Source: Bacteroidales bacterium
GTDB lineage: Bacteria; Bacteroidota; Bacteroidia; Bacteroidales; WCHB1-69
Direction: 5' to 3'
Assembly: GCA_024400835.1 (NCBI GenBank)
Contig: JAKSMC010000010.1
Span: 3,071 to 67,070, forward strand
DNA: 64,000 bases
Below, one piece after another: positions 5,433-63,635 of this stretch (its first letter is position 1; every line of letters begins with the position of its first letter). The notes under the pieces are model-generated. The model searched no databases. It was not told where the DNA came from and saw only the letters and a program-made list of their open reading frames with translations. Both the position numbers and the translations under genes were made by a program.

Positions 5433-5488
5433 CCAACTTTATGTTTTTGAATATTCTAAAATAATAATCTATTAATAATAAAGTGTTT

Positions 5489-11742: not shown

Positions 11743-12537
11743 CTATTTCTTCACCACTTTGACAGTATTGCTGTTGAAGCGTACGAAATAAATGCCAGCG
11801 GTGCAGTCTTCAAAATTGATGCGGATTTGGTCGGTGTCTGCAAACACTGGGGCATTTACGAGGCGGCCGTTCATATCATATACGTTCACGGAAGCGGCAT
11901 TTTCTACAGAAGCTGAAATGGTTACTTCGTTGACGACGGGATTAGGGTATGCTACCACCTGAGGAAGTTCGTTGTCGCGGATGCCGGTGCCAGTGCTGCC
12001 TGCGGCAATTGGTGTGTTTGGAGTAGTTTCGTAGGCGCATTGCAACCATTGAATTTGCAGGCCTGTGGAGACAGTGCCGGACACGTGAACTTTGGCCCAG
12101 CCGTAGTGGGTGTTTCCATTGATTTTAATACGGAAACCGATGTAGCTGTCGGCGTCGCTTGGGAAAAGTGTTTCGTCTAAGTAGTTGACGAGGTATGCAT
12201 CACCTTGTGCCTCCCAGTTGCCATTGGAACCGATTGAGGTGCCTGCTGTGAGGGGCTTGACATCATCCCAACCGCCAGCGTCTAAGGTGCCGTTAGTCCA
12301 GATGTTGTTGCCATTTTCCGACCAGGAGAACATCAACATCGCGTTGGTATGCGTAACCTCAAAGCCGGCGTCACGAATATAGAATTCGGCAGTGCCGTCA
12401 TTGTTGAAATCAATGCCGTAGGAACCTTCAAAATTGCCCAAAGTACCAGTTACGATGGAAGCGTGAGAGATTATTGCGGTGCCGCAGAAGATCAGCATCA
12501 AGATAAAGAGTTTGGAAAAACAAGTAGATTTTTTCAT
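11743..12537 (-). CDS. Secreted protein with T9SS C-terminal sorting domain
   Basis: It has a signal peptide. The C-terminus AYPNPVVNEVTI...VYDMNGRLV...GIYFVRFNSNTVKVVKK is a Por_Secre_tail-like pattern. Confidence 0.8.
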   Translation of the reverse strand: MKKSTCFSKLFILMLIFCGTAIISHASIVTGTLGNFEGSYGIDFNNDGTAEFYIRDAGFEVTHTNAMLMFSWSENGNNIWTNGTLDAGGWDDVKPLTAGTSIGSNGNWEAQGDAYLVNYLDETLFPSDADSYIGFRIKINGNTHYGWAKVHVSGTVSTGLQIQWLQCAYETTPNTPIAAGSTGTGIRDNELPQVVAYPNPVVNEVTISASVENAASVNVYDMNGRLVNAPVFADTDQIRINFEDCTAGIYFVRFNSNTVKVVKK

Positions 12538-20457: not shown

Positions 20458-21549
20458 CTATTTTCCCGATTTCCGGCGGTTGCACTCGCGACAGAGCATC
20501 TGGCAGTTTTCGGCAACGGTTCTTCCGCCTTCGTGCCACGGCGTGATGTGGTCGGCCTCCATCTGATTCAACTCAAAATGTTTGTGGCAGTGCGGGCAGA
20601 TGCCAAACTGGTTTTCGTAGGCCGCCAACTTCTGTGCCTCGCTAAAAGCACGAATAGATAGGAATTTCTCTTTGCGCGTCAAGATGTAAGGATAGATGCC
20701 CGTCTTCTTGGTCACGTCGTCGTCCAATATCAACTTCTTAACCTCTTCGTCCACGGCATTGCTGTCGATGACGCTGTCTTTGAACTCCTTGTACAGCGAG
20801 CCCCAGTCGATGCCCTTCATGATTTTCTTGCGTTCTTTGGTTGGATGAAATGAGCTTTCTATCCACGTGATGACCGATTGGAAGAACTGCCACAATGGAG
20901 CGGAACTGGCGTCGTGTTGGTGATTGGACATATAGACATTGATGTTGCCGTCCGAAATCCAGGAGATGGCCGTTTCCAGGTAGTCCTGCCGGATGGCGGA
21001 TCCCGTCAGAAAGTCGGAGGCAATCTTGCTGGCCACGCAGCCGGGTTTGCTGAAGTAGCGCTTGGCATCACTCACCCACGAGCCCGCATACACGGCGTTG
21101 CGCAACTCCTGATCTGTCAACTCCTCGCCCGCGATGTTGATGGTTTGGAACCACTTGAGTTTCTCGCTGTCGCTGCCGCTGCAGATATAGACGTTGAGCT
21201 CGTAGTCCAGAATCTGCTGCTGCTCGTCGGGCTGCAGGTTGTGGAAATAGCGGAACAGGTAGGCGAAGTCGCCGTTCACGTACTGGCAGATGCTGATGGT
21301 GCGCTGCTGTCCGTCGATGATCTCGTAGGTGCCGTCGTCGCGCACAGCCCAGTACATCACGTTGAGCGGAAATCCTCGTGTGAGTGTGTCAATGACGGCA
21401 TCGCGCTGTTTGTCCTTATATACAAACTCGCGCTGGTAAGGCGGGCGCACATCAAGTCGGCCGCCGTAGGCGCGTACACCGTTTTCGGCATTGTCCTCGT
21501 AACCTTGTGTCAGGTCGCGGACGGTAATTTTGTGTAGTTCTATCTGCAT
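20458..21549 (-). CDS. DUF262 (ParB/Srx-like NTPase) - HNH endonuclease fusion, GmrSD/SspE-like architecture
   Basis: The N-terminal PPYQREFVYKDKQRDAVIDTLTRGFPLN...IIDGQQRTISI matches DUF262. The C-terminal CPHCHKHF...ADHITPWHEGGRTVAENCQMLCRECNRRK is a canonical HNH with two CxxC pairs. The start is set at MQIELHK (ATG 21549). Confidence 0.85.
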   Translation of the reverse strand: MQIELHKITVRDLTQGYEDNAENGVRAYGGRLDVRPPYQREFVYKDKQRDAVIDTLTRGFPLNVMYWAVRDDGTYEIIDGQQRTISICQYVNGDFAYLFRYFHNLQPDEQQQILDYELNVYICSGSDSEKLKWFQTINIAGEELTDQELRNAVYAGSWVSDAKRYFSKPGCVASKIASDFLTGSAIRQDYLETAISWISDGNINVYMSNHQHDASSAPLWQFFQSVITWIESSFHPTKERKKIMKGIDWGSLYKEFKDSVIDSNAVDEEVKKLILDDDVTKKTGIYPYILTRKEKFLSIRAFSEAQKLAAYENQFGICPHCHKHFELNQMEADHITPWHEGGRTVAENCQMLCRECNRRKSGK

Positions 21550-21574
21550 AATGGTTGGTATTTGTTCTTGTGAG

Positions 21575-21617
21575 CCCCAGGTTGCGGTCGTCACTGCGTT
21601 CCTCTCCCCAGGTTGCG
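21575..21617. repeat. Direct duplication of CCCCAGGTTGCG (31-nt spacing) in the GC-rich methyltransferase/HNH spacer
   Basis: The copies lie at 21575-21586 and 21606-21617. A third near-copy, CACCAGGTTGCG, lies at 22982-22993. Confidence 0.7.
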
Positions 21618-21681
21618 CCCTCCATTTCATTCCGGGCTTACTTGGGGTTACCGAGGTCTTGTCCCTCCGGGACTGCTCAAG

Positions 21682-21703
21682 GTACGGCTTCGCCGTGATG
21701 TTT
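21682..21703. repeat. 22-nt exact inverted match to the core of the 45283-45435 element
   Basis: GTACGGCTTCGCCGTGATGTTT is the reverse complement of 45329-45350 (AAACATCACGGCGAAGCCGTAC). It contains the hairpin ACGGC-gaa-GCCGT. Confidence 0.8.
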
Positions 21704-21712
21704 TATATGTTG

Positions 21713-22771
21713 TTATTGCTTCTCATTATATTTCGTTTCTTCCTCCGCGGCCAATGGCAGGGTGCCTTCCTGCTGCACATACTGAGTAGCTGGCTGCCGC
21801 CGACGGATGAGGATACGGGAATACATTCTTTTTCCATTTATATATCCTCTATCGTATTTTTCTGCTCCATCTATATAAATGGTCCTGAGATAATCTGCTT
21901 TCTCAGTTATTCCGATAATTTCAAATTGTTCTGGATTATATTTATCCAAAAATGTGATTGGCACGCCTATTACGCCGTTGTAATCAGCAGGAATATCAGC
22001 GGTTTTATCCACATTGATGGCATCGTAATTGTCATATTGGGGATATTCTTCAGGTGAGTATTTTTTGAAAAGGATCAAATTTTCGTGGCGCTTGTTTATT
22101 TCAAGATTTGTAAACCAATTAACTCCAGAAACACGAATCATTCCTTCCCTATGATCACCTGCTGTAGCAGTGTCCTTATACTTACTAATAAAATGTCCTG
22201 CTCCTCCTTTAAATCCGTAGCCTAACCAAATTCTATTTTCCTTGATGAGAGGAAAAATTTCGCGATATGTAATTGCATTTTGATGTCCCACAATCACAAA
22301 CTTCTTCTCATACTCAATCAACTGTGCCACATATTCCCTAAATAGTGAAAATGGCGGATTGGTAACCACAATGTCGGCTTGTTTCAATAGTTCAATGCAT
22401 TCTTTTGAGCGGAAATCGCCATCACCTTGAAAATAGTTGATGCCGATTTCGTTCGGGTCGGGAACGCGGTTGTTGTTTTTATCACCGTTGTATTCCAACC
22501 AGATGGCCCGTTCCGAATTGTTTTGTGAAAACAGGTCCCGCTCCTGGTTTTTGTAACAGGTGGTAATCAGTTTCTTCAGTCCTAATTTTTCAAAATTATA
22601 GCTGAAGTAATGAAAGAAATTGCTTACGCGCGGGTCGTCGCAGTTGCAAAGCACCACCTTGTCTTTGAAATGCTCTTTGTAATGTTTCAGTTCGTTTTCT
22701 ATATCGACAAGCTGCGTGTAGAACTCGTCTTTTTTGGCGTTCTTCGCCTGGTTAAGGTTCTTGTTTGCCAT
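21713..22771 (-). CDS. EcoRI-methylase-like N6-adenine DNA methyltransferase
   Basis: DEFYTQ near the N-terminus and catalytic IVVTNPPFSLFREY (NPPF). The gene is AT-rich relative to its neighbours. The start is set at MANKNLNQAK (ATG 22771). Confidence 0.8.
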   Translation of the reverse strand: MANKNLNQAKNAKKDEFYTQLVDIENELKHYKEHFKDKVVLCNCDDPRVSNFFHYFSYNFEKLGLKKLITTCYKNQERDLFSQNNSERAIWLEYNGDKNNNRVPDPNEIGINYFQGDGDFRSKECIELLKQADIVVTNPPFSLFREYVAQLIEYEKKFVIVGHQNAITYREIFPLIKENRIWLGYGFKGGAGHFISKYKDTATAGDHREGMIRVSGVNWFTNLEINKRHENLILFKKYSPEEYPQYDNYDAINVDKTADIPADYNGVIGVPITFLDKYNPEQFEIIGITEKADYLRTIYIDGAEKYDRGYINGKRMYSRILIRRRQPATQYVQQEGTLPLAAEEETKYNEKQ

Positions 22772-22775
22772 ATTT

Positions 22776-22805
22776 GATTGATAGTTTTTTGCAATGCTAT
22801 CAATC
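22776..22805. promoter_or_regulatory. 9+9 bp inverted repeat (candidate operator) immediately upstream of the methyltransferase start
   Basis: GATTGATAG-n12-CTATCAATC, 5-34 nt upstream of ATG 22771. Confidence 0.4.
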
Positions 22806-23013
22806 TTAAATACGGATAAAAAGAAAGGTGCAGACCTTTCTATCTTGTCCACGAGGAGCTTCGCACGAACCCCGTTACTCATCTAGATTAGCCCACACCT
22901 TTTTGGTGTAAGCATTAACATTATGATGAGTAACAGAGAGCAAAGCTCAAGTGGGTTAGCATTTATCCGATAATATCAAATCACCAGGTTGCGAAGCTTT
23001 TGATTTGGACAAG

Positions 23014-23075
23014 AATAATAGCTAATGCGTTATTTTATAATATGTTATTTTAAATTTTCTTTTTCTGTTGTTATG
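23014..23075. repeat. Copy A of a ~50-60-nt direct repeat flanking the AlbA_2-wHTH gene
   Basis: AATAATAGCTAATGCGTTAT...GTTATTTTAAATTTTCTTTTTCTGTTG. Copy B lies at 24476-24527. Confidence 0.7.
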
Positions 23076-23087
23076 TTTTTTTATATG

Positions 23088-24449
23088 TTATCTTTCTTGT
23101 TCATTTTTCACCACTTCCCAATGTCCACCGTTGTCGGGTCCGATGCGAATAACGAGCCCTTTTTCTTGAAGGCTTTTGATATGTTTGGCAACGGCTCTCC
23201 GTGAAATTCCAAGTTCTTCGGCAAGTTCATCAGTTGTTATATTTGTGTTCTTTGATATTAAATCAATAATTTTCTGTGAACTTTTCTGTGAACTTTTCTG
23301 TGAACTTTTCTGTGAACTTTTTTCATTGACCATTTCCTGATTATTGTTACGGGAAATAATCACATTCAATCCGCCGCTATTGATGGAAAATTGTGGCAAT
23401 TCAATATTTGAATCGCTGAATGCACGACAGACTTTTTCAATGCCCCTGCCCCAGGATTCAATAAACCCTGCTTTGTAAAAGGCGTTGGAAATTAATGGAT
23501 TGCGTGGTTTTGACTTGTGCTTTTGCAGGAGATTTTCAATAGTGACACCCTCCATCAAATCACCATCGTTCCACAATTCGATGTATTGGTCGAAAATTTT
23601 CATCTGAATGGTCGATCCCATGTAATCCTTGTGGCAAATGGCATTGTAAATCAATTCCCGCAAGGCATCTTCCGGAATTTCCAATTCTTCTACCCGTTGC
23701 ATACCCTCGTATCTGATGTATGAAAGCAAATATTTCTGGCGCAAAAGTTCAACCACTTTTTCGGCCATTTGAATGATGTTGCCTGAAACCACATCCTGAC
23801 TCCACAAGTCGCTGTCGGAAAATCCGAATCTGCCGATTTTGAATTCCGCAGTTGGAAAATAGCGTTGAGGATTGTTCCCGAACAGTAAAATTGCAGCGTA
23901 TTTCAATTTTCCATCATCCGTTATCAGATTCAAATTTTCAAGCACGGTTTCTGTCGAATCAGACAAAGCACTTGTTGGTAAACGCCGCGCCCGAACAGCA
24001 TGTTGCAGGTAATAGTCAATGGCATTTCTGTTAATTCGTTCCAAAGTTGCGGTTTCGTGCGGTATATCATCCCACGAACGCCCCATTTTTTTCAGAAGGA
24101 ATTGCTGCAACGCGGCACCTTTCAGCTCTTGCTTGGTGCTTCCGCTTCTGTAGTGATATTTGCCCTGAAAATTGATAGGGACATTGCTCGGCTCAACGAT
24201 GATTTCAATATAATCCAAGTCATCTCTCTTCAAAAGGTTTGTTTCGCACACTATGCCCAAATAATTTACGATCTTGTTCGGAATGTCCTCGCCTAACTTA
24301 TGGGCGTTTTTCAAGCCGATGACCTCACCGCTGTCATTCACACCAATGTACAAAACACCGCCTTTGGCGTTTGCAAAGCCGCAAATCCATTTCAGGTACT
24401 CGTCGCGCCACGATTCCTTGTATTCGGTGTTTTGAGTTTCGTTGTTCAT
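23088..24449 (-). CDS. AlbA_2 (Schlafen-like) + HATPase_c_4-like + C-terminal winged-HTH protein
   Basis: The N-terminal ETQNTEYKESW...FANAKGGVLYIGV matches AlbA_2. The central region has ALRELIYNAICHKDY. The C-terminal wHTH is ITTDELAEELGISRRAVAKHIKSLQEKGLV. A (SSQK)x4 linker joins them. Confidence 0.8.
   Translation of the reverse strand: MNNETQNTEYKESWRDEYLKWICGFANAKGGVLYIGVNDSGEVIGLKNAHKLGEDIPNKIVNYLGIVCETNLLKRDDLDYIEIIVEPSNVPINFQGKYHYRSGSTKQELKGAALQQFLLKKMGRSWDDIPHETATLERINRNAIDYYLQHAVRARRLPTSALSDSTETVLENLNLITDDGKLKYAAILLFGNNPQRYFPTAEFKIGRFGFSDSDLWSQDVVSGNIIQMAEKVVELLRQKYLLSYIRYEGMQRVEELEIPEDALRELIYNAICHKDYMGSTIQMKIFDQYIELWNDGDLMEGVTIENLLQKHKSKPRNPLISNAFYKAGFIESWGRGIEKVCRAFSDSNIELPQFSINSGGLNVIISRNNNQEMVNEKSSQKSSQKSSQKSSQKIIDLISKNTNITTDELAEELGISRRAVAKHIKSLQEKGLVIRIGPDNGGHWEVVKNEQER
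23271..23318 (-). repeat. Perfect 4 x 12-nt tandem repeat inside the AlbA_2-wHTH CDS
   Basis: On the coding strand, (AGTTCACAGAAA)x4 encodes (SSQK)x4 in the linker before the wHTH. Confidence 0.9.
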
Positions 24450-24475
24450 TTTACGCCTTTTTGTTTTGAATGTGA

Positions 24476-24527
24476 AATAATAGCTAATGCGTTATGTTAC
24501 TTTAAATTTCTTTTTCGCTGTTTCTTA
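24476..24527. repeat. Copy B of the direct repeat flanking the AlbA_2-wHTH gene
   Basis: AATAATAGCTAATGCGTTATGTTACTTTAAATTTCTTTTTCGCTGTT. The first 20 nt are identical to copy A. The remainder is similar, apart from a 10-nt insertion in A. Confidence 0.7.
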
Positions 24528-24545
24528 CAATGCCTTTTACGTGAG

Positions 24546-24570
24546 AATTTCCAGCAGGCTGCTGGAAATT
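24546..24570. promoter_or_regulatory. Perfect 10+10 bp palindrome (candidate operator) in the AlbA_2-wHTH leader
   Basis: AATTTCCAGC-aggct-GCTGGAAATT lies between the putative -7 box and the start codon. Confidence 0.45.
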
Positions 24571-24579
24571 TTTAAAGCG

Positions 24580-24587
24580 CAAAAGTA
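24580..24587 (-). promoter_or_regulatory. Putative -7 box for the AlbA_2-wHTH gene
   Basis: TACTTTTG on the minus strand, 131 nt upstream of ATG 24449. Confidence 0.4.
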
Positions 24588-24754
24588 CAACAAAAAAGAA
24601 CACCACACTTCGTGTTCGTTGTTTTCTTTTAGGTTCCCGATGACATAAAAGATATAGGCTCCATAAACAGCCCCATTTTGCAACAACTAAGAGGGTTTTA
24701 TCGAAATAGAGAATTTTTTTTGCGCTTTTGTCAAAAGTTGTCAGCCGTGCTTCG

Positions 24755-24762
24755 TATTTTTG
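24755..24762 (+). promoter_or_regulatory. Putative -7 box for rmuC
   Basis: TATTTTTG, 34 nt upstream of ATG 24796. Confidence 0.5.
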
Positions 24763-24795
24763 CCGCCGAAAAGAGAAACATAAAAAGACATTCCT

Positions 24796-26076
24796 ATGCA
24801 GACACAAATTCTAATTCTTATCATTGTATCGGTACTCAATCTTGTGGCGATTGTCGTTGCAGCAGTTGCTGTTGTCCGCCGTTTGTCGCGGGATAACAGT
24901 CAGGAACTGATGGAGCAATTTGCGCGCAAACTTTCAGAAGAGGGCCGAAACCAACGTGAGGAAATCCAACATTTGGCAGAGCATCTGCGACAAGAAACAG
25001 CCTTGCAGGCGCGTGCCCAAAGGGACGAGTTTTCCGCTTCTGTCACGCGCTTTCAAGATGCTTTTGATAAAAATACGCAGCGCCTGGTAGATGCACAAAA
25101 AGAGCAGTTTGCCCAAATGAACCAACGCCAAAAGGAATTGGTGGATACGACCGAACGCAAGTTGGAGGAGATGCGCAGCACGGTGGATGAAAAACTACAG
25201 AAGACTCTGAACGAACGCATTGGACAGTCGTTCCGCTTGGTAAGCGAACAATTGGAAAGTGTTCAAAAAGGCTTGGGCGAAATGAAATCCTTGGCCACGG
25301 ATGTCGGCGGACTGAAAAAGGTGCTCAGCAATGTGAAAGTCAGGGGCACCTTCGGGGAACTGCAACTGCAGCACCTGCTCGAACAGATGATGTCGCCGGA
25401 ACAATATGAGACTAATGTGCGCACGGCACACACGGGTAGCGAGCGTGTGGAATTTGCCATTAAACTGCCAGGCAAGGAAGAGGGTGACGGCTTTGTCTAT
25501 CTGCCGATAGATTCTAAGTTTCCGAAAGATGTGTATGAAGATTTTGCCGAAGCGCAGGAGTCGGGAGATACGGCTACTGCGGAGGAAAAGTCGAAACTGC
25601 TGGAAACGGTCATCAAGAAGATGGCAAAAGACATTCATGACAAATATCTTGATCCGCCATATACCACTGACTTTGCGATTATGTTCCTGCCGTTTGAAAA
25701 CATCTATGCGGAGGTGATTCGGCGTACCACGCTGATGGAGGAACTCCAGCGCACGCACCATGTGATGGTTACTGGTCCGACCACGTTGGGCGCTTTGCTG
25801 AGCAGTCTCCAGATGGGTTTCAGAACGCTTGCTATCCAAAAGCGCAGTAGTGAGGTTTGGAAGACTTTGGGCGTGGTAAAAGCGCAGTTTGAAAAATTCG
25901 GTGGGCTGTTAGACAAGGCTCAGCGCAACTTGCAGCAGGCCACTACGGCCATTGACACGCTGAAGGGAACGCGTACCAATGCCATCATACGTTCTCTTAA
26001 AGAGGTTGAAACCCTGCCGTTGGGCGATGAAGATGCGGTGAATATCCTTCCCATCCTCGATGATGACGACGTTTAG
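24796..26076 (+). CDS. rmuC: DNA recombination protein RmuC
   Basis: An N-terminal TM helix is followed by a long coiled-coil and then a C-terminal nuclease-like region: FAIMFLPFENIYAE...GPTTLGALL. Confidence 0.85.
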   Translation: MQTQILILIIVSVLNLVAIVVAAVAVVRRLSRDNSQELMEQFARKLSEEGRNQREEIQHLAEHLRQETALQARAQRDEFSASVTRFQDAFDKNTQRLVDAQKEQFAQMNQRQKELVDTTERKLEEMRSTVDEKLQKTLNERIGQSFRLVSEQLESVQKGLGEMKSLATDVGGLKKVLSNVKVRGTFGELQLQHLLEQMMSPEQYETNVRTAHTGSERVEFAIKLPGKEEGDGFVYLPIDSKFPKDVYEDFAEAQESGDTATAEEKSKLLETVIKKMAKDIHDKYLDPPYTTDFAIMFLPFENIYAEVIRRTTLMEELQRTHHVMVTGPTTLGALLSSLQMGFRTLAIQKRSSEVWKTLGVVKAQFEKFGGLLDKAQRNLQQATTAIDTLKGTRTNAIIRSLKEVETLPLGDEDAVNILPILDDDDV

Positions 26077-26310
26077 CCCACAGATTTTATTTGCTTTCCT
26101 ATTAGTCCATAGTTATCTTAGCATAGTGTTGAAGTTTGGAACTGATATTACTGAATAGTGAAGCAATCTTGTTTTCAAATATGGTTTAATATTTGAAATG
26201 AGGAAATCATCTTTCTGATAATGTACAAACCTACAGCAAACCGGCGGAAAAGCACTCAAAAAAATCACAATAAAAAAATCACGACATTCGTATTTGTGAG
26301 TAAAAAATAG

Positions 26311-26318
26311 TATTTTTG
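26311..26318 (+). promoter_or_regulatory. Putative -7 box for the Abi_2 gene
   Basis: TATTTTTG, 99 nt upstream of ATG 26417. Confidence 0.45.
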
Positions 26319-26376
26319 CCGCGTCATAAGTGCCAGTGTTCACAAGCTGTACATTTGCACTATAAAATGGACTTAT

Positions 26377-26405
26377 AGGATACTCAATGCGAGTATCCTT
26401 TTTTT
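26377..26405 (+). terminator. Terminator-like hairpin plus U-run inside the Abi_2 leader
   Basis: AGGATACTC-aatgc-GAGTATCCT is followed by TTTTTT. It lies between the putative -7 box (26311) and ATG 26417, and the alternative ATG 26387 sits in its loop. Confidence 0.5.
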
Positions 26406-26416
26406 ATCAGAGCACT

Positions 26417-27274
26417 ATGAAACTAGCAACAACCATACAAGAACAAATCCAATTGCTTCAAAACAGAGGAATGGAAATATCTGACATTCAAAAAGCTGGT
26501 GAGATTTTATCAGATATTGGCTATTACCGTTTGGGATTCTATTGGTTCCCTATGGAAAAGAATGTAAAAGGGGTCAGAAATCATCTTTTTAAGCAAGGCA
26601 CAAGATTTGAATCTGCAGTGGAGTTGTACTATTTCGATAATGATTTGAGAAAACTGCTCCTCCCGTATATCCTACGAGTAGAGGTTAATTTTAGAACACA
26701 TCTCATTTACCTTGCTTCTAATCAGTATAAGAACGAACCGACTTGGTTTGTTGATCCCAGGTATGTAAATCAAAAATACATCAATGAGTTTCTGGTAACA
26801 TATTTAGATATTAAAAAGAATACCATTATTCAAAAGCATCATAGAAAATACCCACATGACACTTATGCGCCAGCTTGGAAAACTCTTGAATATGCAACTT
26901 TCGGTCAAATAACTTTACTGTATCAATCGCTTAATGATAAAAGCCTGCAAAATGATCTCGCTTGGCAATATAATATTAGGAACCTGAAAGTATTTCGTAG
27001 TTATCTGACGACAATTCGTTATTTGCGAAACATTTGCGCGCATGGTCATACCTTGTACGATGTGCAGTTGCCGCAAAGTATTCTTACAGGTCCATTAGAA
27101 CTGCATAACGATGACACGCATAATCTGGTTGGTGCAATAAAAGTGCTTGAATACCTTTTACAGAGCATATCCCTAAACAGAGCGTCTGACTTGAAAAGTG
27201 ACATTGTCAAACTTCTTGATGCTGCAAGTCCGGAAATATTCTCCTTGGTTTCTTATTTAAGAGGCATTATATAA
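26417..27274 (+). CDS. Abi_2 (AbiD/AbiF-like) abortive-infection family protein
   Basis: IGYYRLGFYWFP, LRKLLLPYILRVEVNFRT and YLRNICAHGHTLYD are typical Abi_2 blocks. The gene is AT-rich. The ORF track starts at 26387, inside a hairpin loop; MKLATT (26417) is preferred. Confidence 0.8.
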   Translation: MKLATTIQEQIQLLQNRGMEISDIQKAGEILSDIGYYRLGFYWFPMEKNVKGVRNHLFKQGTRFESAVELYYFDNDLRKLLLPYILRVEVNFRTHLIYLASNQYKNEPTWFVDPRYVNQKYINEFLVTYLDIKKNTIIQKHHRKYPHDTYAPAWKTLEYATFGQITLLYQSLNDKSLQNDLAWQYNIRNLKVFRSYLTTIRYLRNICAHGHTLYDVQLPQSILTGPLELHNDDTHNLVGAIKVLEYLLQSISLNRASDLKSDIVKLLDAASPEIFSLVSYLRGII

Positions 27275-42252: not shown

Positions 42253-43176
42253 ATGAAAAAACTTTTATTAGCATTAGTCGCGCTGACCTTCCTTTTCAGC
42301 GCCTGTAACAAAGAGGGTGTCTATACCCCGAAAAAGAAACTTTCCGCTGTTTATTATCAAGCAACCGGCAGTGATCAAAAAAAACTTTATGAAGAGTATG
42401 TGTGGAATGGAGACCTGCTGAAAGAGAAATTGTTCTATGCTTCTATCGTAGATGGATATCTTGGCAATTTAGATTTTGTCCCTACATACGAAGGCAAGCG
42501 TGTGGTTCGTGTGGATGAGAAATTATCAGGAGAATATGTGGACTATTTCTATGATGGAAAATTCCTCACCCACTTGACCTATCATTTTGGAGATTGGGTC
42601 TCTGAGGTGGACGTAGAACATAAAGATGGAAAAATATCCAAGATTTCCTTCCACGCCGATACGCTGATGGGCAATGCCGGTGCTGAAAAACTATTAAGTA
42701 AGTTCGTTTCTCAAGACGAAATGAACCATATTAAAAAGATTATGAAACAGAACTCAAAGTACATGGGTGCTGGTGTGGTATCTTTTGACTTGTCATACAC
42801 TTGGAAAGGAGATAATGTGGCTCAAGCAACGATGGATTTATATCAATTGGGAGAATTGGCCCTCAAACAAATTGTGGAGTATCAATATGATGAGATGCTC
42901 AATCCGTATGCAATAACCTGGTCTGATTTCGGTTCGGAGTTCCAACTGGTACAAAATGCCGTCGAACTCAGATTGTTGTCTATGAGCAAGAACAATTTCA
43001 CTCAGTACAAGCGTGAGGAAATATACTATATCGAAGGAGAAGAGGCTTTCCGTCAAGAATATGTAAACAATGTTACATACGAATATGAAGGCAAGTACCC
43101 TGTCAAAGCCGTTCAAAACTATCATTACATAGATGATCCAATTTATGAAGACGTATTCTATTACGAATACAAGTAG
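42253..43176 (+). CDS. Lipoprotein, tandem paralog 1 of 4 (uncharacterised family with YD-repeat-like periodicity)
   Basis: MKKLLLALVALTFLFSACNKEGVYTPKKKLS. The recurring blocks are WNGD, YEGKRVVRVDE, YFYDGKFL, HKDGKISKI, WKGDNV, YQYDEMLNPY and YEYEGKYPVKA. It ends YYEYK. Confidence 0.85.
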   Translation: MKKLLLALVALTFLFSACNKEGVYTPKKKLSAVYYQATGSDQKKLYEEYVWNGDLLKEKLFYASIVDGYLGNLDFVPTYEGKRVVRVDEKLSGEYVDYFYDGKFLTHLTYHFGDWVSEVDVEHKDGKISKISFHADTLMGNAGAEKLLSKFVSQDEMNHIKKIMKQNSKYMGAGVVSFDLSYTWKGDNVAQATMDLYQLGELALKQIVEYQYDEMLNPYAITWSDFGSEFQLVQNAVELRLLSMSKNNFTQYKREEIYYIEGEEAFRQEYVNNVTYEYEGKYPVKAVQNYHYIDDPIYEDVFYYEYK

Positions 43177-43236
43177 TGAACTGTGACCGAAAATGGTCAG
43201 TATTAGATTTTAACACGAAATATAAATAACCTAATT

Positions 43237-44148
43237 ATGAAAAAACTCTTATTAGCATTAGTCGCGCTGGCATTCCTGTTCAGTGCCTGCAACAAAGAGG
43301 GTGTCTATATTCCGAAGAAGAAACTTTCCACCGTTTATTATCAAAAAGCCGGCAGTGAACAAAAAGATCTTTATGAAGAGTTCCTGTGGAACGGCAACAA
43401 GTTGGCGAGCAGAATATCCAAAGGCTCGTTGATTGATATGTATTTCCACGATGTTGAATTGGTCCCCACTTACGAAGGCAAACGTATTGTTCGCGTGGAT
43501 GAAAAGATAGCCGGTGAGTATGTCGATTATTTCTATGATGGGAAACTGCTCACCAAACTTGTTTATCACGCCGGCAATATGACCGCCGAAGCTACTGTTG
43601 AACATAAGGATGGTAAACTCTCTCGTGTCTTTTTCCCAAAAGCTAAAGCAACGGGCGAGGATGTAATTGCAAAATTGATGGGTGTGTTTGTCCCTCAAGA
43701 GCAAATCCAAGATATGTACAAAGTGTTAAAGCAGAATGCCAAATCCCTTTCCGCTGTGGATGCTGAAGTGTTATGGACCTGGGATGGTGACAATGTCGTG
43801 GAGGTCACTTATAACCTTTATAATGAAGATGGAACTCCTGTCACCAATTATGTTGCCAAATTAACACACGACAACAATCTTAATCCGTATGCTATCAGTT
43901 GGGCCGATTTCGGTTCTGAATCCCAAATCAAGCAGCAAAGTTATGGTTGTACCTATTTTACTTTGAGCAAGAACAATATAGTTCGAATTGAGCATACATA
44001 TACAATCAATATGCCAGCTCCGCTTGAATCTTATTATTATCAGTCTGTGGAAGAGATTACATACGAATATGACGGCAAGTATCCTGTCAAGGCCACTCGT
44101 ACGGAAGAAGGAGAGGTTACAGGAACATTTTATTACGAATACAAATAG
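43237..44148 (+). CDS. Lipoprotein, tandem paralog 2 of 4
   Basis: By eye it is nearly 90 percent identical to paralogs 3 and 4, with the same lipobox and the same YYEYK end. Confidence 0.85.
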   Translation: MKKLLLALVALAFLFSACNKEGVYIPKKKLSTVYYQKAGSEQKDLYEEFLWNGNKLASRISKGSLIDMYFHDVELVPTYEGKRIVRVDEKIAGEYVDYFYDGKLLTKLVYHAGNMTAEATVEHKDGKLSRVFFPKAKATGEDVIAKLMGVFVPQEQIQDMYKVLKQNAKSLSAVDAEVLWTWDGDNVVEVTYNLYNEDGTPVTNYVAKLTHDNNLNPYAISWADFGSESQIKQQSYGCTYFTLSKNNIVRIEHTYTINMPAPLESYYYQSVEEITYEYDGKYPVKATRTEEGEVTGTFYYEYK

Positions 44149-44208
44149 TGAACTGTGACCGAAAATAGTCAGCATTAGATTTTAACACAAAATTACAAAA
44201 ACATAATT

Positions 44209-45117
44209 ATGAAAAAACTCTTATTAGCATTAGTCGCGCTGACATTCCTTTTCAGCGCGTGTAACAAAGAGGGTGTCTATACCCCGAAAAAGAAACTTTC
44301 CACCGTTTATTATCAAAAAGCCGGCAGTGAACAAAAAGATCTTTATGAAGAGTATCTGTGGAACGGCAACAAGTTGGCGAGCAGAATATCCAAAGGCTCG
44401 TTGATTAGCCAGTTTTTCCACGATGTTGAATTGGTCCCTACTTACGATGGCAAACGTATCGTTCGCGTGGATGAGAAGATCTCTGGCGAGTATGTCGATT
44501 ATTTTTATGAAGGAAAACTGCTCACCAAACTTGTTTATCACGCCAGCAATATGACCGCCGAAGCTACGGTGGAACATAAGGATGGTAAACCCACTCGTGT
44601 CTTTTTCCCAAAAGCAAAAACAACGAGTGAGGATGTAACCGCAAAATTGATGAGTGTATTTGTCCCTCAAGAGCAAATCCAAGATATGCACAAGGTGTTA
44701 AAGCAGAATTCCAAATCCCTTTCCGCTGTGGATGCTGAAGTGTTATGGACCTGGGATGGTGACAATGTCGTGGAGGTCACTTCTAACCTTTATAATGAAG
44801 ATGGAACTCCTGTCACCAATTATGTTTCCAGATTAACATATGACAACAATTTTAACCCGTATGCTATCAGTTGGGCCGATTTCGGTTCTGAATCCCAAAT
44901 CGTGCAGCAAAGTTATGGTTGTACTTATTTTACTTTGAGCAAGAACAATATTGTTCGAATCGAGCACACGAATACGATTACTATGTCTATTCTGCCTGAA
45001 CCTATAGTTTCTCAGTTTGCCGAAGAAATCACATACGAGTATGACGGCAAGTATCCTGTCAAGGCCACTCGTACGGAAGAAGGAGAGGTTACAGGAACAT
45101 TTTATTACGAATACTAA
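44209..45117 (+). CDS. Lipoprotein, tandem paralog 3 of 4; last codon replaced by the stop of an inserted element
   Basis: It ends YYEY-TAA where the TAA is the first triplet of the insertion. The displaced original end (YYEYQ-TAG) sits at 45510-45530. Confidence 0.85.
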   Translation: MKKLLLALVALTFLFSACNKEGVYTPKKKLSTVYYQKAGSEQKDLYEEYLWNGNKLASRISKGSLISQFFHDVELVPTYDGKRIVRVDEKISGEYVDYFYEGKLLTKLVYHASNMTAEATVEHKDGKPTRVFFPKAKTTSEDVTAKLMSVFVPQEQIQDMHKVLKQNSKSLSAVDAEVLWTWDGDNVVEVTSNLYNEDGTPVTNYVSRLTYDNNFNPYAISWADFGSESQIVQQSYGCTYFTLSKNNIVRIEHTNTITMSILPEPIVSQFAEEITYEYDGKYPVKATRTEEGEVTGTFYYEY

Positions 45118-45512
45118 TGTTGCGATAAATTTTGAAAAAATCTTATAAGTTATTGATATAATATAAAATACAAACATTATTTGATTTTTTGATTTGAAAA
45201 ACACTATTTGTTCATTTCTCAAAGGCGCAAGGTTATTATCATCACACATTAAGCGCAAAAGCAAATTTTGCGCGATCATAAATTCCCCTTCTTTTAGAAG
45301 GGGTGCCCGTAGGGCAGGGTAGTGGCATAAACATCACGGCGAAGCCGTACATTATTATCCGTTATATAAAGGTTGCTTCGCAAACACCCATATCACTACC
45401 CCGGCTTTCAGCCACCCCTTCTAAAAGAAGGGGAATGGGCGCCTCCGTTCGGGCAGGCCCGACGGGAATAGAACAGATATATTGGCATTCGAAATTTATC
45501 GCATCAGTAGTA
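45115..45512. mobile_element. MITE-like non-autonomous insertion (about 0.4 kb) with terminal inverted repeats and flanking direct repeat
   Basis: The TIRs are TGTTGCGATAAATTTTG (45118-45134) and the reverse complement of CGAAATTTATCGCATCA (45490-45506), matching 15/17 (21/24 if extended outward). The flanking direct repeat TATTACGAATAC lies at 45103-45114 and 45513-45524. There is no ORF of transposase size inside. Confidence 0.65.
45283..45435. repeat. 153-bp palindromic element with 42-nt inverted arms, nested in the insertion
   Basis: The left arm is TTCCCCTTCTTTTAGAAGGGGTGCCCGTAGGGCAGGGTAGTG (45283-45324). The right arm (45394-45435) is its imperfect reverse complement. Each arm contains an 8-bp hairpin CCCCTTCT/AGAAGGGG and a 4-bp hairpin (GCCC-gta-GGGC versus GGCT-gaa-AGCC). 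Confidence 0.75.
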
Positions 45513-45589
45513 TATTACGAATACCAATAGTGAACTGTGACCGAAAATGGTCAGTATTAGATTTTACACGAAATATAAATAACCTAATT

Positions 45590-46507
45590 ATGAAAAAACT
45601 CTTATTAGCATTGGTTGCGCTGACCTTCCTTTTCAGTGCCTGTAACAAAGAGGGTGTCTATACTCCGAAAAAGAAACTTTCCGCCGTTTATTATCAAAAA
45701 GCCGGCAGTGAACAAAAAGATCTTTATGAAGAGTATCTGTGGAACGGCAACAAGTTGACGAGCAGAATATCTAAGGGCTCTTTGATCAATCAGTATTTCA
45801 ATGATGTTGAGTTGGTGCCTACTTACGAAGGCAAACGTGTTGTCCGCGTTGATGAAAAGGTGTCTGGTGACTATGTCGATTATTACTATGATGGAAAATT
45901 GCTCACCAAGCTTGTTTATCATTCCGGCAATATGACCGCTGAAGCTACGGTGGAACATAAGGATGGAAAAATATCCCGAGTCTTTTTCCCAAAAGCTAAA
46001 GCAACGGGCGAGGATGTAATGGCAAAATTGATGCGTGTATTTGTCCCTCAAGAGCAAATTCAAGATATGCACAAGGTGTTAAAGCAGAATGCCAAATCCC
46101 TTGCTGCTGTAGATGTTGAAATGTTATGGACCTGGGACGGTGACAATGTTGTGGAGGTTGTTTCTAACCTTTTTGATGAAGAAGATGATGAAATTCCTGT
46201 CACCAATTATGTTTCCAGATTAACACACGACAACAATCTTAACCCGTATGCTATCAGTTGGGCTGATTTCGGCTCTGAATCCCAAATCGCGCAGCAAAGT
46301 TATGGTTGTACATATTTTACTTTGAGCAAGAACAATGTTGTTCGAATTGAGCACACGAATACGATTACTATGTCGTTTCTGCCTGAACCTATTGTTCAAC
46401 AGTTTGTGGAAGAGATTGCATACGAATATGACGGCAAGTATCCTGTTAAGGCCACTCGTACGGAAGATGGAGAAGTTTCCGAAACATTTTATTACGAATA
46501 CAAGTAG
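45590..46507 (+). CDS. Lipoprotein, tandem paralog 4 of 4
   Basis: The ORF-track start at 45482 reads through non-coding sequence. The conserved MKKLLLALVALTFLFSAC begins at ATG 45590. Confidence 0.85.
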   Translation: MKKLLLALVALTFLFSACNKEGVYTPKKKLSAVYYQKAGSEQKDLYEEYLWNGNKLTSRISKGSLINQYFNDVELVPTYEGKRVVRVDEKVSGDYVDYYYDGKLLTKLVYHSGNMTAEATVEHKDGKISRVFFPKAKATGEDVMAKLMRVFVPQEQIQDMHKVLKQNAKSLAAVDVEMLWTWDGDNVVEVVSNLFDEEDDEIPVTNYVSRLTHDNNLNPYAISWADFGSESQIAQQSYGCTYFTLSKNNVVRIEHTNTITMSFLPEPIVQQFVEEIAYEYDGKYPVKATRTEDGEVSETFYYEYK

Positions 46508-54719: not shown

Positions 54720-56375
54720 TTATTTGGCAATCACCATCTTGGATTTGTAGATGTGATTGTCGCTGATGATTTCAACGAAGTAGGTGCCGTTGGGCAGGTC
54801 TCTGAAATTCATGTTGATAGAGGGTTCCAGAATGACTGTGGTGCTGCTGATCAGTTTGCCCATCATATCATAGACGTTGCAGATACCGGAGTTGGAATCG
54901 AAAGCGCCCTTGATGTTGACGTTGCCGAAGGAAGGATTCGGGGCAATGGTGAGGTTCTGGACAGGTTGTGCGACGGAAGCGATGCCGACAGCGGGCGAGC
55001 CGTTGTAGTGCATGCCGTCCATTATGAGCGTGCCCGTGTTGTCCGGGTCGAGCCACGGTTGGAGTTTCTTGGCATTGCTGCTGTTATTGTTGTTGGTCCA
55101 TGACCAGGAGAACTTACCATAGTTGTCGTAGCCGCTGGTATATTCGCAGGATGATGAACCCGTGCTGAGGTCACCGATGATACGGCCGTTGGCGTTGAAC
55201 AGCGGGGAGCCGGAGGAACCTTGTTCTGTGACGCCCTTGTTGTTGCTGCCTGTGTACCAATAGGTCTTCCAGTATTTGTTGGAAGAGGTTACTTGTCTCG
55301 GGAAACTGATTTTCTTGTAGTCACCGCCGGGGTGGTGAATGCCTGCGCCCACGGAACCAGCGCCAGTAGCGTCCCAGCCGGCAAACACGATGGAGTCAGC
55401 GTACAGGTTGCTGATGTTGCCGGTGATGCGCAGCAAAAGGAAGTCAGAACTGCTGTTAAGGTTGGCAGTTGCACAAACCGTACCGCCGTTGGCTCTGTAC
55501 AATGGGGAAATGGAAGCGGGCTCGTTGTTACAGGTCGGAGATTGGTAGTTGAAGTAGAATTTGAATGTACAGTTGTTGTCGTCGTTGAGGCAGTGGTTGG
55601 CGGAGAGCACGTACGGGGTCTTGTCTTGGCGGACATTGTTGATCATAGCGCCGGAGCAGAGGAAGTCAGCACCTTCAGCCGGGCTGTGGATGCTGATGCA
55701 GACCACGGAGTTCACTTGGTTGCGCCAGGGGTTGGCGATAGGGCAGGCTACGTTGATGTGGCAGTCGCCTTCGGAATCTCCGATGTTGCCTTTGGCTTCG
55801 CGGGAGTAAGCTGCGATGTCTCTGTAAATGTGGCTGATATGGTCGATTTCGAAAGTGCCGTGGAAGAGCACGTCTGCCGGCTCGTAGTATTCGAACGTGA
55901 TTTCATCACCCATGATGTCTTCGGAAACAAGCCATCCGTTTTGTTCCTGCACGTCTTCAGCAGTGTATTTGCCCGTGAGCTGGCTGAAGTCGCCGCTGTA
56001 AATGTAGAAACTTGCTTCTTCCGGGATGTTGAAATTGGAAATGTATGCGCAAAGCATCAATGCATCCGGAGATTTCACTGTGACACGCCACAAACGGTCG
56101 CCGTTCGGCAGAATGTCGGTACGGCCGCTGTTCTTTGTGTTTAACTTGACGATTTCTGAAACGCCTACACGCATAGGCTTTCCGTCCTTCACGAAGTTGA
56201 TGGCATCTTCGTTTATCAACTTCTGGTGGTCTTGGGCCGGAAGTTCGATGCGGTCGACATTCTGGGAAATGTTGTTGTGAGTGAAACTGTAAGGCTTGCC
56301 AACGACCTCTTTTTGAGCAAATGCGGGCACAATGGCGAGCAAAACAAAGGCAATGAGGATGATTGATTTTTTCAT
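54720..56375 (-). CDS. Trypsin-fold (S1) serine endopeptidase, lysyl-endopeptidase-like, with T9SS C-terminal sorting domain
   Basis: It has a signal peptide. The catalytic His context is VLSANHCL and the Ser context is GSSGSPLF. The C-terminus IAPNPSFGNVNI...VYDMMGKLI...GTYFVEII...MVIAK is CTD-like. Confidence 0.8.
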   Translation of the reverse strand: MKKSIILIAFVLLAIVPAFAQKEVVGKPYSFTHNNISQNVDRIELPAQDHQKLINEDAINFVKDGKPMRVGVSEIVKLNTKNSGRTDILPNGDRLWRVTVKSPDALMLCAYISNFNIPEEASFYIYSGDFSQLTGKYTAEDVQEQNGWLVSEDIMGDEITFEYYEPADVLFHGTFEIDHISHIYRDIAAYSREAKGNIGDSEGDCHINVACPIANPWRNQVNSVVCISIHSPAEGADFLCSGAMINNVRQDKTPYVLSANHCLNDDNNCTFKFYFNYQSPTCNNEPASISPLYRANGGTVCATANLNSSSDFLLLRITGNISNLYADSIVFAGWDATGAGSVGAGIHHPGGDYKKISFPRQVTSSNKYWKTYWYTGSNNKGVTEQGSSGSPLFNANGRIIGDLSTGSSSCEYTSGYDNYGKFSWSWTNNNNSSNAKKLQPWLDPDNTGTLIMDGMHYNGSPAVGIASVAQPVQNLTIAPNPSFGNVNIKGAFDSNSGICNVYDMMGKLISSTTVILEPSINMNFRDLPNGTYFVEIISDNHIYKSKMVIAK

Positions 56376-60637: not shown

Positions 60638-63466
60638 ATGAAGAATGAATTGATTTCCATACGAGGCGCGAAGGTCAACAATCTGAAGAACATAGACCTT
60701 GACATCCCACGTAACAAGCTGGTGGTTATCACCGGATTGTCCGGCTCGGGCAAGTCGTCATTGGCATTCGACACGCTCTATGCCGAGGGCCAGCGTCGTT
60801 ATGTGGAAAGCCTGAGCTCCTATGCCCGTCAGTTTATGGGCAAGATGCACAAACCGGAGGTGAAGTCTGTGACGGGCATTCCGCCGGCCATTGCCATCGA
60901 GCAGCATGTGATGTCCAACAACCCTCGTTCAACGGTGGGCACGGTGACGGAAATCTACGATCACCTCAAGTTGTTGTTCGCCCGCGTGGGCCATACCTTC
61001 TCGCCCGTCAGCGGTCGGGAAGTCCGCCGTGACGATCTTGCAGACGTCATCCGTTACGTCCAGAAAGTGGAACCCGGCATGCGCGTCTATGTGCTCGCCC
61101 CGGTGGTGATCCCCGAGGGGCGCACTTTGCTGGAACAACTCTCCATCTTGAGCCAACAGGGCTTCAGCCGCGTGGTCTATGGCCGCAAACTGTTCGAAAT
61201 CGACGAGTTCCTGAAAGGCAAAAAGGCCACCCGCGTCAATGACATGTTCGTGGTCGTCGACCGCTTCAAGTCCGAAAAGATTGCCGACAACATGGACCGA
61301 CTGAAGGATTCCGTGAGCACGGCACTGGCTGAAGGCAAGGGCGTGTGCGTCATCCAAACGGAAGACGAAAGCGCGTCCGTCTCCCAGAAGACTTTCAGCA
61401 ACCGCTTTGAGGCTGACGGCATTACCTTTGAGGAACCGTCCGTCAACCTCTTCAGCTTCAACAACCCTTACGGTGCCTGCAAAACCTGCTTGGGCACGGG
61501 CATGATTGAGGGCGTTGACCCCGACTTGGTGATTCCCAATAGAAATCTGTCTGTGGCTGACGGCGCCGTCGCCTGCTGGCATGGCGACGTCCTCGGCGAA
61601 TGGAACCGCCAGTTTATGAAACAGGCCCTCAAACTGGACTTCCCAGTGTACCGCGCTATCGAGGACCTCACCGACGAGGAGTTCAACCTCCTTTGGTACG
61701 GTGACCCCAAACACCATGTGGAGGGCGTCGTGCAATTTTTCAACTTCGTAGCTTCTAATACCTATAAGATACAGTTCCGCGTGTTGCAGGCTCGCTACCG
61801 CGGTAGGGAACTGTGCCACGACTGCCACGGCACGCGCCTCCGCAAGGATGCCGGCTATGTGAAGGTCGGCGGCAAGTCCATTACCGAACTATTAGCCATG
61901 CCGGTCAGCGACTTGCAGGTCTTCTTGGAGCACCTCAAGTTCACCAATCGCAACGAGCAGGAAATCTCGCGCAACATTTTGAAGGAACTGAAAACGCGTG
62001 TCGCACTCTTGAATGAGGTGGGCCTCGGCTACCTCACATTGGATAGAACCGCCGGCACACTGTCCGGTGGCGAATCCCAGCGCATCAACTTGGCAACCTC
62101 TTTGGGCAGCAGTCTCGTCGGCTCTCTCTACATCTTGGACGAGCCCAGCATCGGCCTGCACCCCCGCGATACCGAAAACCTTATCCGTGTGCTCAAACAT
62201 CTCCGCGATATCGGCAATACCGTGGTGGTCGTTGAACACGACGAGTCCATCATCCGCGCCGCCGACTACATCATCGACATTGGCCCGCGCGCCGGACAAT
62301 GGGGTGGGGAAGTGGTCTTCACCGGCAACTTCGACCAACTCCTGCAGGTGGATGACAATCTGACGGCTTCTTATCTCCGCGACATGGTCGGCGGATTTCC
62401 GGCCGAGCAGTGCCGCCATATCCCCGTGCCCACGCACCGCCGCAAATGGCGCAACTATATCGAAATCTTGGGCGCACGCGAACACAACCTTAAGAATATT
62501 GATGTTAAAATACCCTTGGAATGCCTTACGGTGGTTACCGGCGTCAGCGGCTCCGGCAAGAGCAGCCTTGTGGCCAACATCCTCTATCCCAGCCTGCTCC
62601 GCCTGCTCGACAAGAACGGCCCGAAACCCGGCCGCTGCAGTTCCGTGGACGCGGACATGACGAAGATTTCCGATGTCGTCATGGTGGACCAGGATCCCAT
62701 CGGTCGCTCCTCACGCTCCAACCCCGTGACGTACGTCAAGGCATACGACTATATCCGCGACTTGTACGCCAGCCAGCCGCTGGCCAAACAACGCAACTAC
62801 AAGCCGAGTTTCTTCTCTTTCAACGTGGCCGGCGGCCGCTGCGAAGAGTGCGAAGGCGAAGGCGTCATCCATATCAACATGCAGTTCATGGCCGATGTGG
62901 AGATGACTTGCCCCTCATGCAACGGACAGCGCTTCCGTGATGAGGTCCTCGACGTAAAGGTTAAAGATACTACGGTGACCGACATCCTCAACATGACGGT
63001 GGACGATGCTGTTGAGTTCTTCCGCCAGTTGCCGGCCACTGACCAAATTAAGAACATTATACGCAGACTGCTTCCGCTGCAGGATGTGGGACTCGGCTAC
63101 CTCGTGCTGGGACAGCCCTCCTCCACCTTGTCAGGCGGTGAGGCCCAGCGCGTGAAATTGGCATACTATTTGTCTTTAGATGACGATGAACAAAACAAGA
63201 TCTTCATCTTCGACGAACCGACCACGGGCTTGCATTTCCACGATATCAGCAAACTCTACCGCTCGTTCACCAGACTTATCGAACGCGGCAACACTATCGT
63301 GGTCATCGAGCACAACACCGAGGTCATCAAGTGCGCCGACTGGATAATAGACATGGGACCCGAGGGCGGCGAGGCCGGCGGCAAAGTCGTCTTTGAGGGA
63401 ACCCCGGAGAAGCTGCTGGAACGCAAGCGCTCCTACACCGCGCAAGCCCTGCAGGGGAAAATTTGA
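60638..63466 (+). CDS. uvrA: Excinuclease ABC subunit A
   Basis: Two ABC modules ([14 protein letters not shown] and [11 protein letters not shown]), zinc-finger Cys clusters, and LSGGE signatures. The ORF-track start (60635) is TTG; ATG 60638 is preferred. Confidence 0.95.
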
Positions 63467-63519
63467 AATGATGAAGGGATGAAGAGATGAAGGGATGAAG
63501 AGATTGACGGAGGGACCCA
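63464..63519 (+). repeat. GATGAAGR period-8 tract starting in the uvrA stop codon
   Basis: TGAAATGATGAAGGGATGAAGAGATGAAGGGATGAAGAGATTGACGGAGGGACCC. The tract resumes at 63562-63592 after the solo 42-nt arm. Confidence 0.85.
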
Positions 63520-63561
63520 TTCCCCTTCTTTAAGAAGGGGTGCCCGTAGGGCGGGGTAGTG
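63520..63561 (+). repeat. Solo copy of the 42-nt arm downstream of uvrA
   Basis: TTCCCCTTCTTTAAGAAGGGGTGCCCGTAGGGCGGGGTAGTG matches 45283-45324 with 2 substitutions. Confidence 0.8.
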
Positions 63562-63635
63562 AGATGAAGAGATGGAGAGATGAAATGATGAAAATATTTT
63601 AATAAAAAACATATTAACCCCAAAAATTTAATGAT

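Follow-up and report, generated by a model that had tools for sequence, protein, structure and literature searches.

A probable IS4-derived miniature inverted-repeat element, its palindromic core rearranged among copies, in the last codons of a tandem lipoprotein gene of a Bacteroidales genome

Members of the IS4 family of insertion sequences (ISs) possess a single open reading frame (ORF) for a transposase with D(60-110)D(100-150)E spacing and a Y(2)R(3)E(6)K motif, and they duplicate about one helix turn of target DNA (8–13 bp; 4–6 bp in IS701, ISH3 and IS1634) (PMC2266710; De Palmenaer, Siguier and Mahillon 2008). The IS231-derived cassettes MIC231 of Bacillus cereus, as far as they are portrayed where cited in PMC2266710 and in an overview of miniature inverted-repeat transposable elements (MITEs; PMC3184786), are short, lack a transposase, are bounded by terminal inverted repeats (TIRs) and combine IS4-family ends with an unrelated interior and with a target-site duplication (TSD) as long as that of the parent IS. 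Within the Bacteroidales, the MITEs of Porphyromonas gingivalis (BrickBuilt/MITEPgRS, PMC4596501) hold another kind of repeat in their interior. Here we describe an insert that shares these features, located in a 64 kb stretch of contig JAKSMC010000010.1 from a Bacteroidales bacterium (hereafter, the window), which is very probably a non-autonomous MITE derived from an IS4-family IS of uncultured Bacteroidales that transposed into the last codons of the third of four tandem lipoprotein genes (P1 to P4), its palindromic core being rearranged among copies, most likely passively. The window element is most like the IS231-derived cassettes in its logic of IS4-family ends around a foreign interior. 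Judged against what these accounts say of MIC231, it differs in host phylum and IS4 lineage and in an interior that holds a palindromic repeat doublet and no passenger gene, and mobilisation in trans has been shown for MIC231 and is presumed for the window MITE. The likeness to BrickBuilt/MITEPgRS is one of layout, with no similarity of sequence to be expected; the interior of the latter is a tandem minisatellite, in contrast to an inverted doublet of a two-hairpin unit in the window.

The paralogs P1 (42253–43176), P2 (43237–44148), P3 (44209–45117, plus strand) and P4 (45590–46507, plus strand) are tandem genes with the lipoprotein signal sequence MKKLLLALVALTFLFSAC; none of the four matched a Pfam family, and P2, P3 and P4 are 84–88% identical to one another and ~49% identical to P1. 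The gene ends of all four align as TATTACGAATAC-(AAG/AAA/CAA)-TAG-TGAACTGTGA, followed by a spacer of ~60 nt. At the end of P3, TATTACGAATAC is present at 45103–45114 and in a second copy at 45513–45524, and a repeat search returned the direct repeat TATTACGAATAC(T/C)AAT at 45103 and 45513. The left junction reads ...TTT TAT TAC GAA TAC TAA TGT TGC GAT AAA TTT TG... and the right junction ...CGAAATTTATCGCATCAGTAGTA TATTACGAA TAC CAA TAG TGAACTGTGACC..., with the sequence beyond the right end of the insert aligning base for base with a paralog gene end and its normal ~60-nt spacer. The insertion point lies between GAA and TAC of the ...Y-Y-E-Y-Q-stop terminus of P3, and P4, which retains its usual 60 nt upstream, now starts 472 nt past the P3 stop codon versus ~60 nt normally, in agreement with a preliminary description of this DNA that had put the P3–P4 spacer at ~470 nt. 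The element itself supplies the last Tyr codon of P3 (TAC, 45112–45114) and its stop codon (TAA, 45115–45117); because it starts with TAC-TAA, it happens to restore the Tyr codon, and termination follows at once, so that P3 (302 amino acids, one residue shorter) loses only its terminal residue (Gln/Lys) and ends ...YYEY-TAA, compared with ...YYEYK in P4. The new TAA stop and the lost last codon had been recognised before, and what has to be added is that the preceding Tyr codon also belongs to the element.

Uninterrupted gene ends, which the preliminary description had proposed looking for, were found in relatives. (L-numbers in this text denote loci from other assemblies or contigs.) Relatives of P3 at 75–96% identity mostly end in ...YYEYK (a few in YYEYMK or YYEYVK), and at L001, L002, L004 and L006 the gene ends are uninterrupted, with a ~60-nt spacer wherever a further array copy follows. 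The empty sites are therefore the three other paralog ends in the window and those of these four relatives, none of them being the strictly orthologous P3–P4 spacer. Exact-product look-ups gave no record for the shortened P3 or for a deaminase encoded in the window, and only gene-catalogue entries without flanks for P2 and P4; since the window products had no usable records, the orthologous spacer could not be located in another strain. The array varies from 2 to 4 copies among relatives (L001, L004 and L006 versus window positions 42253–46507) and in its position relative to the UDP-N-acetylglucosamine 2-epimerase gene, with three copies upstream of that gene in L004. A fifth, divergent family member is encoded on the opposite strand at a distance of 27 kb (14183–15079, minus strand; 34% identical to P3, E 7e-47); it ends in ...YYEY plus one or two residues and carries TATTACGAATAC at 14192–14203.

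The borders of the element follow from an alignment with 10 further left ends and with two IS copies that are complete. Homology among left ends always starts with TAC TA(G/A) TGTTGCGATAAATTTTG regardless of the flank, and the element accordingly starts at 45112; it occupies 45112–45512 (401 bp, plus strand, with the IS left end first and in the same direction as the paralogs), lacks a transposase and has the ends TACTAATGTTGCG... and ...CGCATCAGTAGTA. The TSD is the 9-mer TATTACGAA, the left copy of which (45103–45111, plus strand) encodes the Y-Y-E codons of P3 and the right copy of which (45513–45521, plus strand) precedes the displaced end of the gene, TAC CAA TAG (45522–45530), and the normal spacer. 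On the left, the additional TAC of the repeated 12-mer belongs to the end of the element itself; on the right it is the following codon of the target, and the match is coincidental. On the strength of the left-end alignment and of the TSDs of the complete IS copies, the lengths of 12 bp or 7 bp (ATTACGA) given for the duplication in the preliminary description were dropped in favour of 9 bp, the existence of a duplication being upheld; its insert of 398 nt at 45115–45512 was likewise correct as an insertion and is revised in border and length to the 401 bp stated here by comparison with the left ends and the IS. The left TIR, TACTAATGTTGCGATAAATTTTGAA, lies at 45112–45136 (plus strand), and the right TIR (45488–45512, minus strand; reverse complement TACTACTGATGCGATAAATTTCGAA) is similar to the two right ends of the IS, TACTACTGTTGCGATAA and TAGTACTGTTGCGATAA. 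The inverted repeat reaches from 45111–45136 to 45488–45513, with 26-nt arms that are 88% complementary (23/26 matching), so the inverted ends earlier reported as matching at 15/17 or 21/24 were real and somewhat longer. The 17-mer TIR occurs only at these two sites in the 64 kb, against 0.32 occurrences expected by chance. Position 8 of the 9-mer target is A in 12/12 left flanks read.

An autonomous partner with the same TIRs, another proposed check, was also found: an IS of ~1325 bp in related Bacteroidales (L030, 1–1327; L108, 1202–2526; L107, 7624–8950), of which L108 and L107, from a second metagenome scan, are complete copies with both flanks and are 89% and 80% identical to L030, respectively. 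The IS termini (TACTAGTGT...) and those of the MITE are the same. Perfect 9-bp TSDs flank the IS in L108 (TGTCATCAA) and L107 (TTTCATGAA), and the 9-mer ATTGACAAT is common to the contig ends L068 and L030. In L030, an ORF of 390 amino acids starts at position 127, after the shared left end, and its product matches Pfam DUF4372 (2.5e-28) and DDE_Tnp_1 (2.1e-27; PF01609, above cut-off) as well as the NCBIfam model NF033592 'IS4 family transposase' (239 bits, cut-off 115). Transposase residues D129, D195 and E299 give the spacing D(65)D(103)E, and YRHRWDIEVFFKWIK at residue 292 corresponds to Y(2)R(3)E(6)K. This IS belongs to the IS4 family, the DDE spacing, the YREK motif, the single ORF and the 9-bp duplication all being present; it shares with that family part-palindromic AT-rich targets (TTTCATGAA, ATTGACAAT) and differs by the N-terminal DUF4372 domain of its transposase and by its termini, and the window element by having no transposase at all (compared with PMC2266710). 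Its size, 5'-TA ends and 9-bp duplication, set against Table 1 of PMC2266710, suggest IS4Sa as the nearest subgroup. The nearest annotated transposases in a plasmid collection were an IS4-family protein of Prevotella nigrescens (61%) and ISGme2/ISPosp4-like proteins (~40%).

The MITE is a chimera of an IS left end, a foreign interior and an IS right repeat. Its IS-derived left end (45112–45199, plus strand) matches the part of the IS lying upstream of the start codon of the transposase, these first 88 nt being 90.9% identical to L030 positions 3–90, 93.3% to L108 and 88% to L107, and its last ~25 nt are the right TIR shared with the IS, whereas the interior of ~290 nt shows no similarity to the IS. 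This interior comprises an AT-rich part (45200–45281, plus strand) with the hairpin GCGCAAAAGCAAATTTTGCGC at 45253–45273, which is ~86% conserved in L112 and present in L113; a palindromic core of 155 bp (45282–45436); and a right part (45437–45487, plus strand) with the hairpin CCGTTCGGGCAGGCCCGACGG at 45445–45465, conserved in L058, L112 and L113. The longest ORFs inside or overlapping the MITE encode 26–75 amino acids and match only spurious ORFs of other copies, in keeping with the earlier statement that no transposase-sized ORF is encoded. On either strand, the folding of the MITE is far better than that of shuffled controls (z about -10 to -11), as predicted from its inverted repeats. 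Rfam gave no match at E<=1 over 44900–45700 and none at gathering thresholds across the whole window.

The search for further copies, likewise suggested in the preliminary description, returned MITE-type copies and remnants at unrelated loci. The pattern TGNTGCGATAAATTTYGAA, scanned across one genome per species, gave 86 matches, mostly due to chance; BLAST of the insert against these matches showed that the real relatives are all in metagenome-assembled genomes (MAGs) of Bacteroidales. L092 is identical to the MITE (100%) over 100 nt, including 10 MITE-specific bases, and ends at the contig end; seven contig-end copies come from one human-gut sample and are assigned to two MAGs (HGM05159, HGM05636). 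L058 contains 219 nt of the MITE right half (84%) with the core arranged as in the window. Further copies were found by searching a protein collection with the spurious ORFs of the element: L112 is truncated at its left end, L113 is near-complete, and L114 is the L112 locus in another sample. L020 and L074 are left-end copies in one MAG, the same MAG as that of L113; both are solo left ends of ~70 nt without a right end (L020, 2473–2544; L074, 1824–1960), one of them directly upstream of a recF-like gene. In L113 (positions 1–600; MAG JAZRYC01, contig 70), MITE units are joined head-to-tail through the AAAATTTAT core of both TIRs in a tandem-like manner up to the contig end. No match was obtained by blastn with the insert in the plasmid collection. 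Viral contigs returned nothing with a two-TIR gapped pattern, 13 chance matches with a single-TIR pattern (none extending past ~21 nt) and one chance match with a hairpin pattern. Metagenome contigs returned nothing with the MITE right-end 20-mer and three IS copies, with no MITE, with the shared left-end 20-mer.

A stretch of ~100 nt, 89% identical, adjoins the MITE copies at L092 (2100–2201), L112 (3311–3412) and L114 (2680–2728), the loci being otherwise non-homologous; it may be a further small repeat or an alternative end of the MITE. L092 and L112 were considered as one locus and this was rejected, only the ~100 nt beside the MITE being shared and the adjoining ORFs of 305 amino acids being unrelated; the 305-amino-acid gene beside the L112 copy was also considered as a member of the lipoprotein family and rejected.

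Taken with the partner IS, the insert has the attributes by which MITEs are defined: at 401 bp it is short (<~600 bp) and without transposase; it shares its left 88 nt and right TIR with an autonomous IS; its TSD is as long as that of the parent IS (9 bp in the window, L107, L108 and L068/L030); and copies are found at unrelated sites (L092, L113, L112/L114 and L058, with remnants at L020 and L074), together with empty sites. The insertion with TIRs and target duplication that was originally noted is confirmed by the repeats, and its reading as a MITE is supported by the copies elsewhere and by the autonomous partner. As to mechanism, the behaviour of the family would have a transposase supplied in trans bind both terminal repeats of ~25 bp, excise the 401-bp element and paste it into a 9-bp staggered cut at TATTACGAA in the last codons of P3, with gap repair then yielding the 9-bp duplication. 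The array looks like a single transcription unit, the only good terminator-like hairpin near it lying after P4 (46631–46645), and for this reason the insert, with its strong structure, could have a polar effect; alternatively, transcription towards P4 could be driven from its IS-derived left end.

Several observations weigh against this interpretation. There is no transposase gene in the 64-kb window, and transposition in trans is something we infer by analogy with the family. Only the window copy is complete with both TIRs and a TSD, other MITE-type copies being cut by contig ends, truncated or fused, and no second identical full MITE copy was recovered. Neither a polar nor a promoter effect on P4 is backed by a motif: no Bacteroidetes-type TAnnTTTG box occurs in 45000–45620 on either strand, and sigma-70-like and terminator-like matches were at chance level in promoter and terminator scans.

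The palindromic core (45282–45436, no strand assigned) consists of two inverted 43-nt units, here named U units (45282–45324, plus strand; 45394–45436, minus strand), around a 69-nt loop (45325–45393), and is bounded by the perfect 24-nt inverted repeat ATTCCCCTTCTTTTAGAAGGGGTG. Each U unit has the form ATTCCCCTTCT-nnn-AGAAGGGG-TG-[4-bp stem with triloop]-GGGGTAGTG and contains two hairpins. Across 11 U units, hairpin 1 is invariant and the stem of hairpin 2 is kept by double changes at 2/4 pairs (GCCCGTAGGGC, GGCTGAAAGCC, GGCCGAAGGCC). A covariance model (R1) built from ten U units scored the two units of the core at 70–74 bits; it detected three U units in all 64 kb of the window, and 160 kb of other loci yielded known copies only. 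The third unit in the window is a solo U unit (63519–63561, plus strand, 71.3 bits) downstream of a uvrA-like gene; its left flank ACGGAGGGACCC resembles the right interior of the MITE, and it therefore looks like a core fragment in the L112-type orientation. This solo unit is situated within short GATGAAG(R)GAT repeats (window 63460–63600). L115 and L116 are solo U units in unrelated intergenic DNA. Separately, 25 nt at 21679–21703, between methylase and GmrSD genes, are 96% identical to the hairpin of the core loop (ACGGCTTCGCCGT plus flanks) and may represent one more fragment of this family of repeats.

These properties recall repetitive extragenic palindromic (REP) elements and their hairpin-forming doublets (REPINs) (Bertels and Rainey 2011, PMC3116915; PMC3337134), to which the core alone is comparable: two inverted palindromic units with a spacer form a long hairpin, single units also occur between genes, and GTAG is found within each unit. 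The core could on this basis be a separate element of REP/REPIN type, served by a Y1 transposase of the REP-associated (RAYT) kind and nested in or captured by the MITE, its orientations reflecting independent insertions. The inverted 43-nt doublet with its 69-nt spacer matches the REPIN layout of PMC3337134, and the solo units and the partial doublet-like copy outside any IS4-type MITE (63519–63561, L115, L116) agree with it. However, the core sits at exactly one and the same place in the MITE of the window and in that of L058, L112 and L113, which makes one acquisition followed by in-place inversion simpler than repeated insertion; units are sparse (three in 64 kb and none beyond those known in ~160 kb of other loci) where tens to hundreds of REPIN copies per genome would be expected; and no Y1 gene, nor any other transposase or recombinase gene, was present among ~45 long ORFs of the window. 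The U unit also departs from described REPINs in having two adjacent hairpins, and the host lies outside the groups in which REPINs are well described. We regard a separate REPIN-type origin of the core as unlikely, while giving it more weight than the other two alternatives below.

The core has been rearranged among the copies. Relative to the window, the arms of L112 align on the minus strand and its core on the plus strand at 94%, and flipping 45282–45436 in silico raised the overall identity with L112 from 76% to 88%, with a core identity of 95.5%. In L113, the best fit was obtained with the 69-nt loop alone flipped (80% versus 71–72%), which implies a second breakpoint, at GGGGTAGTG/CACTACCCC. 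L114 carries a single 19-nt hairpin, and the ~130 bp that would separate it from the other are missing; because solo U units always carry the 19-nt hairpin, L114 is best read as a deletion between the palindromes and not as an empty insertion site. Small hairpin-loop inversions are a common passive event, and in its behaviour the core resembles a long, self-recombining hairpin; these rearrangements are most likely due to recombination, or to template switching, between the palindromic arms of the core and not to a programmed switch.

The Bacteroidales are an order known for invertible promoters, and the core might instead be a programmed inverton riding on the MITE, a site-specific recombinase flipping it and so altering transcription into the downstream lipoprotein gene (phase variation). 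Like the invertons of this order, it is a short segment with inverted-repeat bounds (here a perfect 24-nt repeat), found in opposite orientations and beside surface-protein genes, in this case between surface-lipoprotein paralogs of a Bacteroidales genome. Three arrangements and one deletion exist among the copies, the core is better conserved than the MITE arms (94% versus 85–86% between the window and L112), and the compensatory changes at 2/4 pairs preserve the stem of hairpin 2. Unlike those invertons, the core is free of Bacteroidetes promoter motifs on either strand, and the window holds no recombinase gene. Its orientations differ between loci and organisms, and in the assemblies no single locus of one sample showed a copy in both orientations. 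The U unit also occurs singly, where inversion is impossible (63519–63561, L115, L116), and the breakpoints vary between copies (at the outer hairpins in L112, at GGGGTAGTG/CACTACCCC in L113), which fits recombination anywhere along a long stem better than a single crossover site; passive inversion of hairpin loops is, besides, common. With no promoter, recombinase or within-sample polymorphism seen, we rate a programmed switch as improbable, and less probable still is the fuller proposal of a working switch in the core, inverted or excised by a recombinase and hitch-hiking on an IS4-derived MITE, whose transposition would seed phase-variable control near surface-lipoprotein genes of Bacteroidales.

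That the insert is left over from recombination between the 3' ends of paralogs, such as a decayed fifth array member with a flanking repeat that is merely the shared gene end, was named in the preliminary description as what might overturn its view and is next to impossible: although all family members share the 3'-end TATTACGAATAC and array copy number differs among relatives, the insert has no DNA similarity to the array beyond chance 9–23-mers, its sole protein-level match (23 bits) is antisense and lies inside the stretch that is 91–93% identical to the IS left end, and the presence of the same termini at many unrelated loci, with IS copies flanked by 9-bp duplications of unrelated sequence, already refutes it.

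Elsewhere in the window, a defence-like islet (20458–27274) encodes a GmrSD_N and HNH endonuclease, an EcoRI-like adenine methylase, a Schlafen/AlbA_2-HATPase_c_4-HTH protein, RmuC and an Abi_2 protein. Type IX secretion cargo with Por_Secre_tail domains, including a gingipain-like C25 peptidase, is encoded at 5483–8911, 11743–12537, 17772–19538 and 54720–56375, and is consistent with a Bacteroidota host.

The IS4-derived MITE and its partner form a previously undescribed pair in uncultured Bacteroidales of gut or rumen type, which by itself is routine mobile DNA. Its clean termini, TSD length and target preference allow this IS/MITE family to be annotated in metagenomes, where its copies break assemblies, and the window copy records a recent transposition inside a tandem surface-lipoprotein array of varying copy number. 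As a MITE that contains a second, palindromic repeat, inverted at two breakpoints or deleted across copies, it offers a compact natural case of hairpin-mediated rearrangement; were the inversion of the core programmed after all, such elements would be a route by which switches spread.

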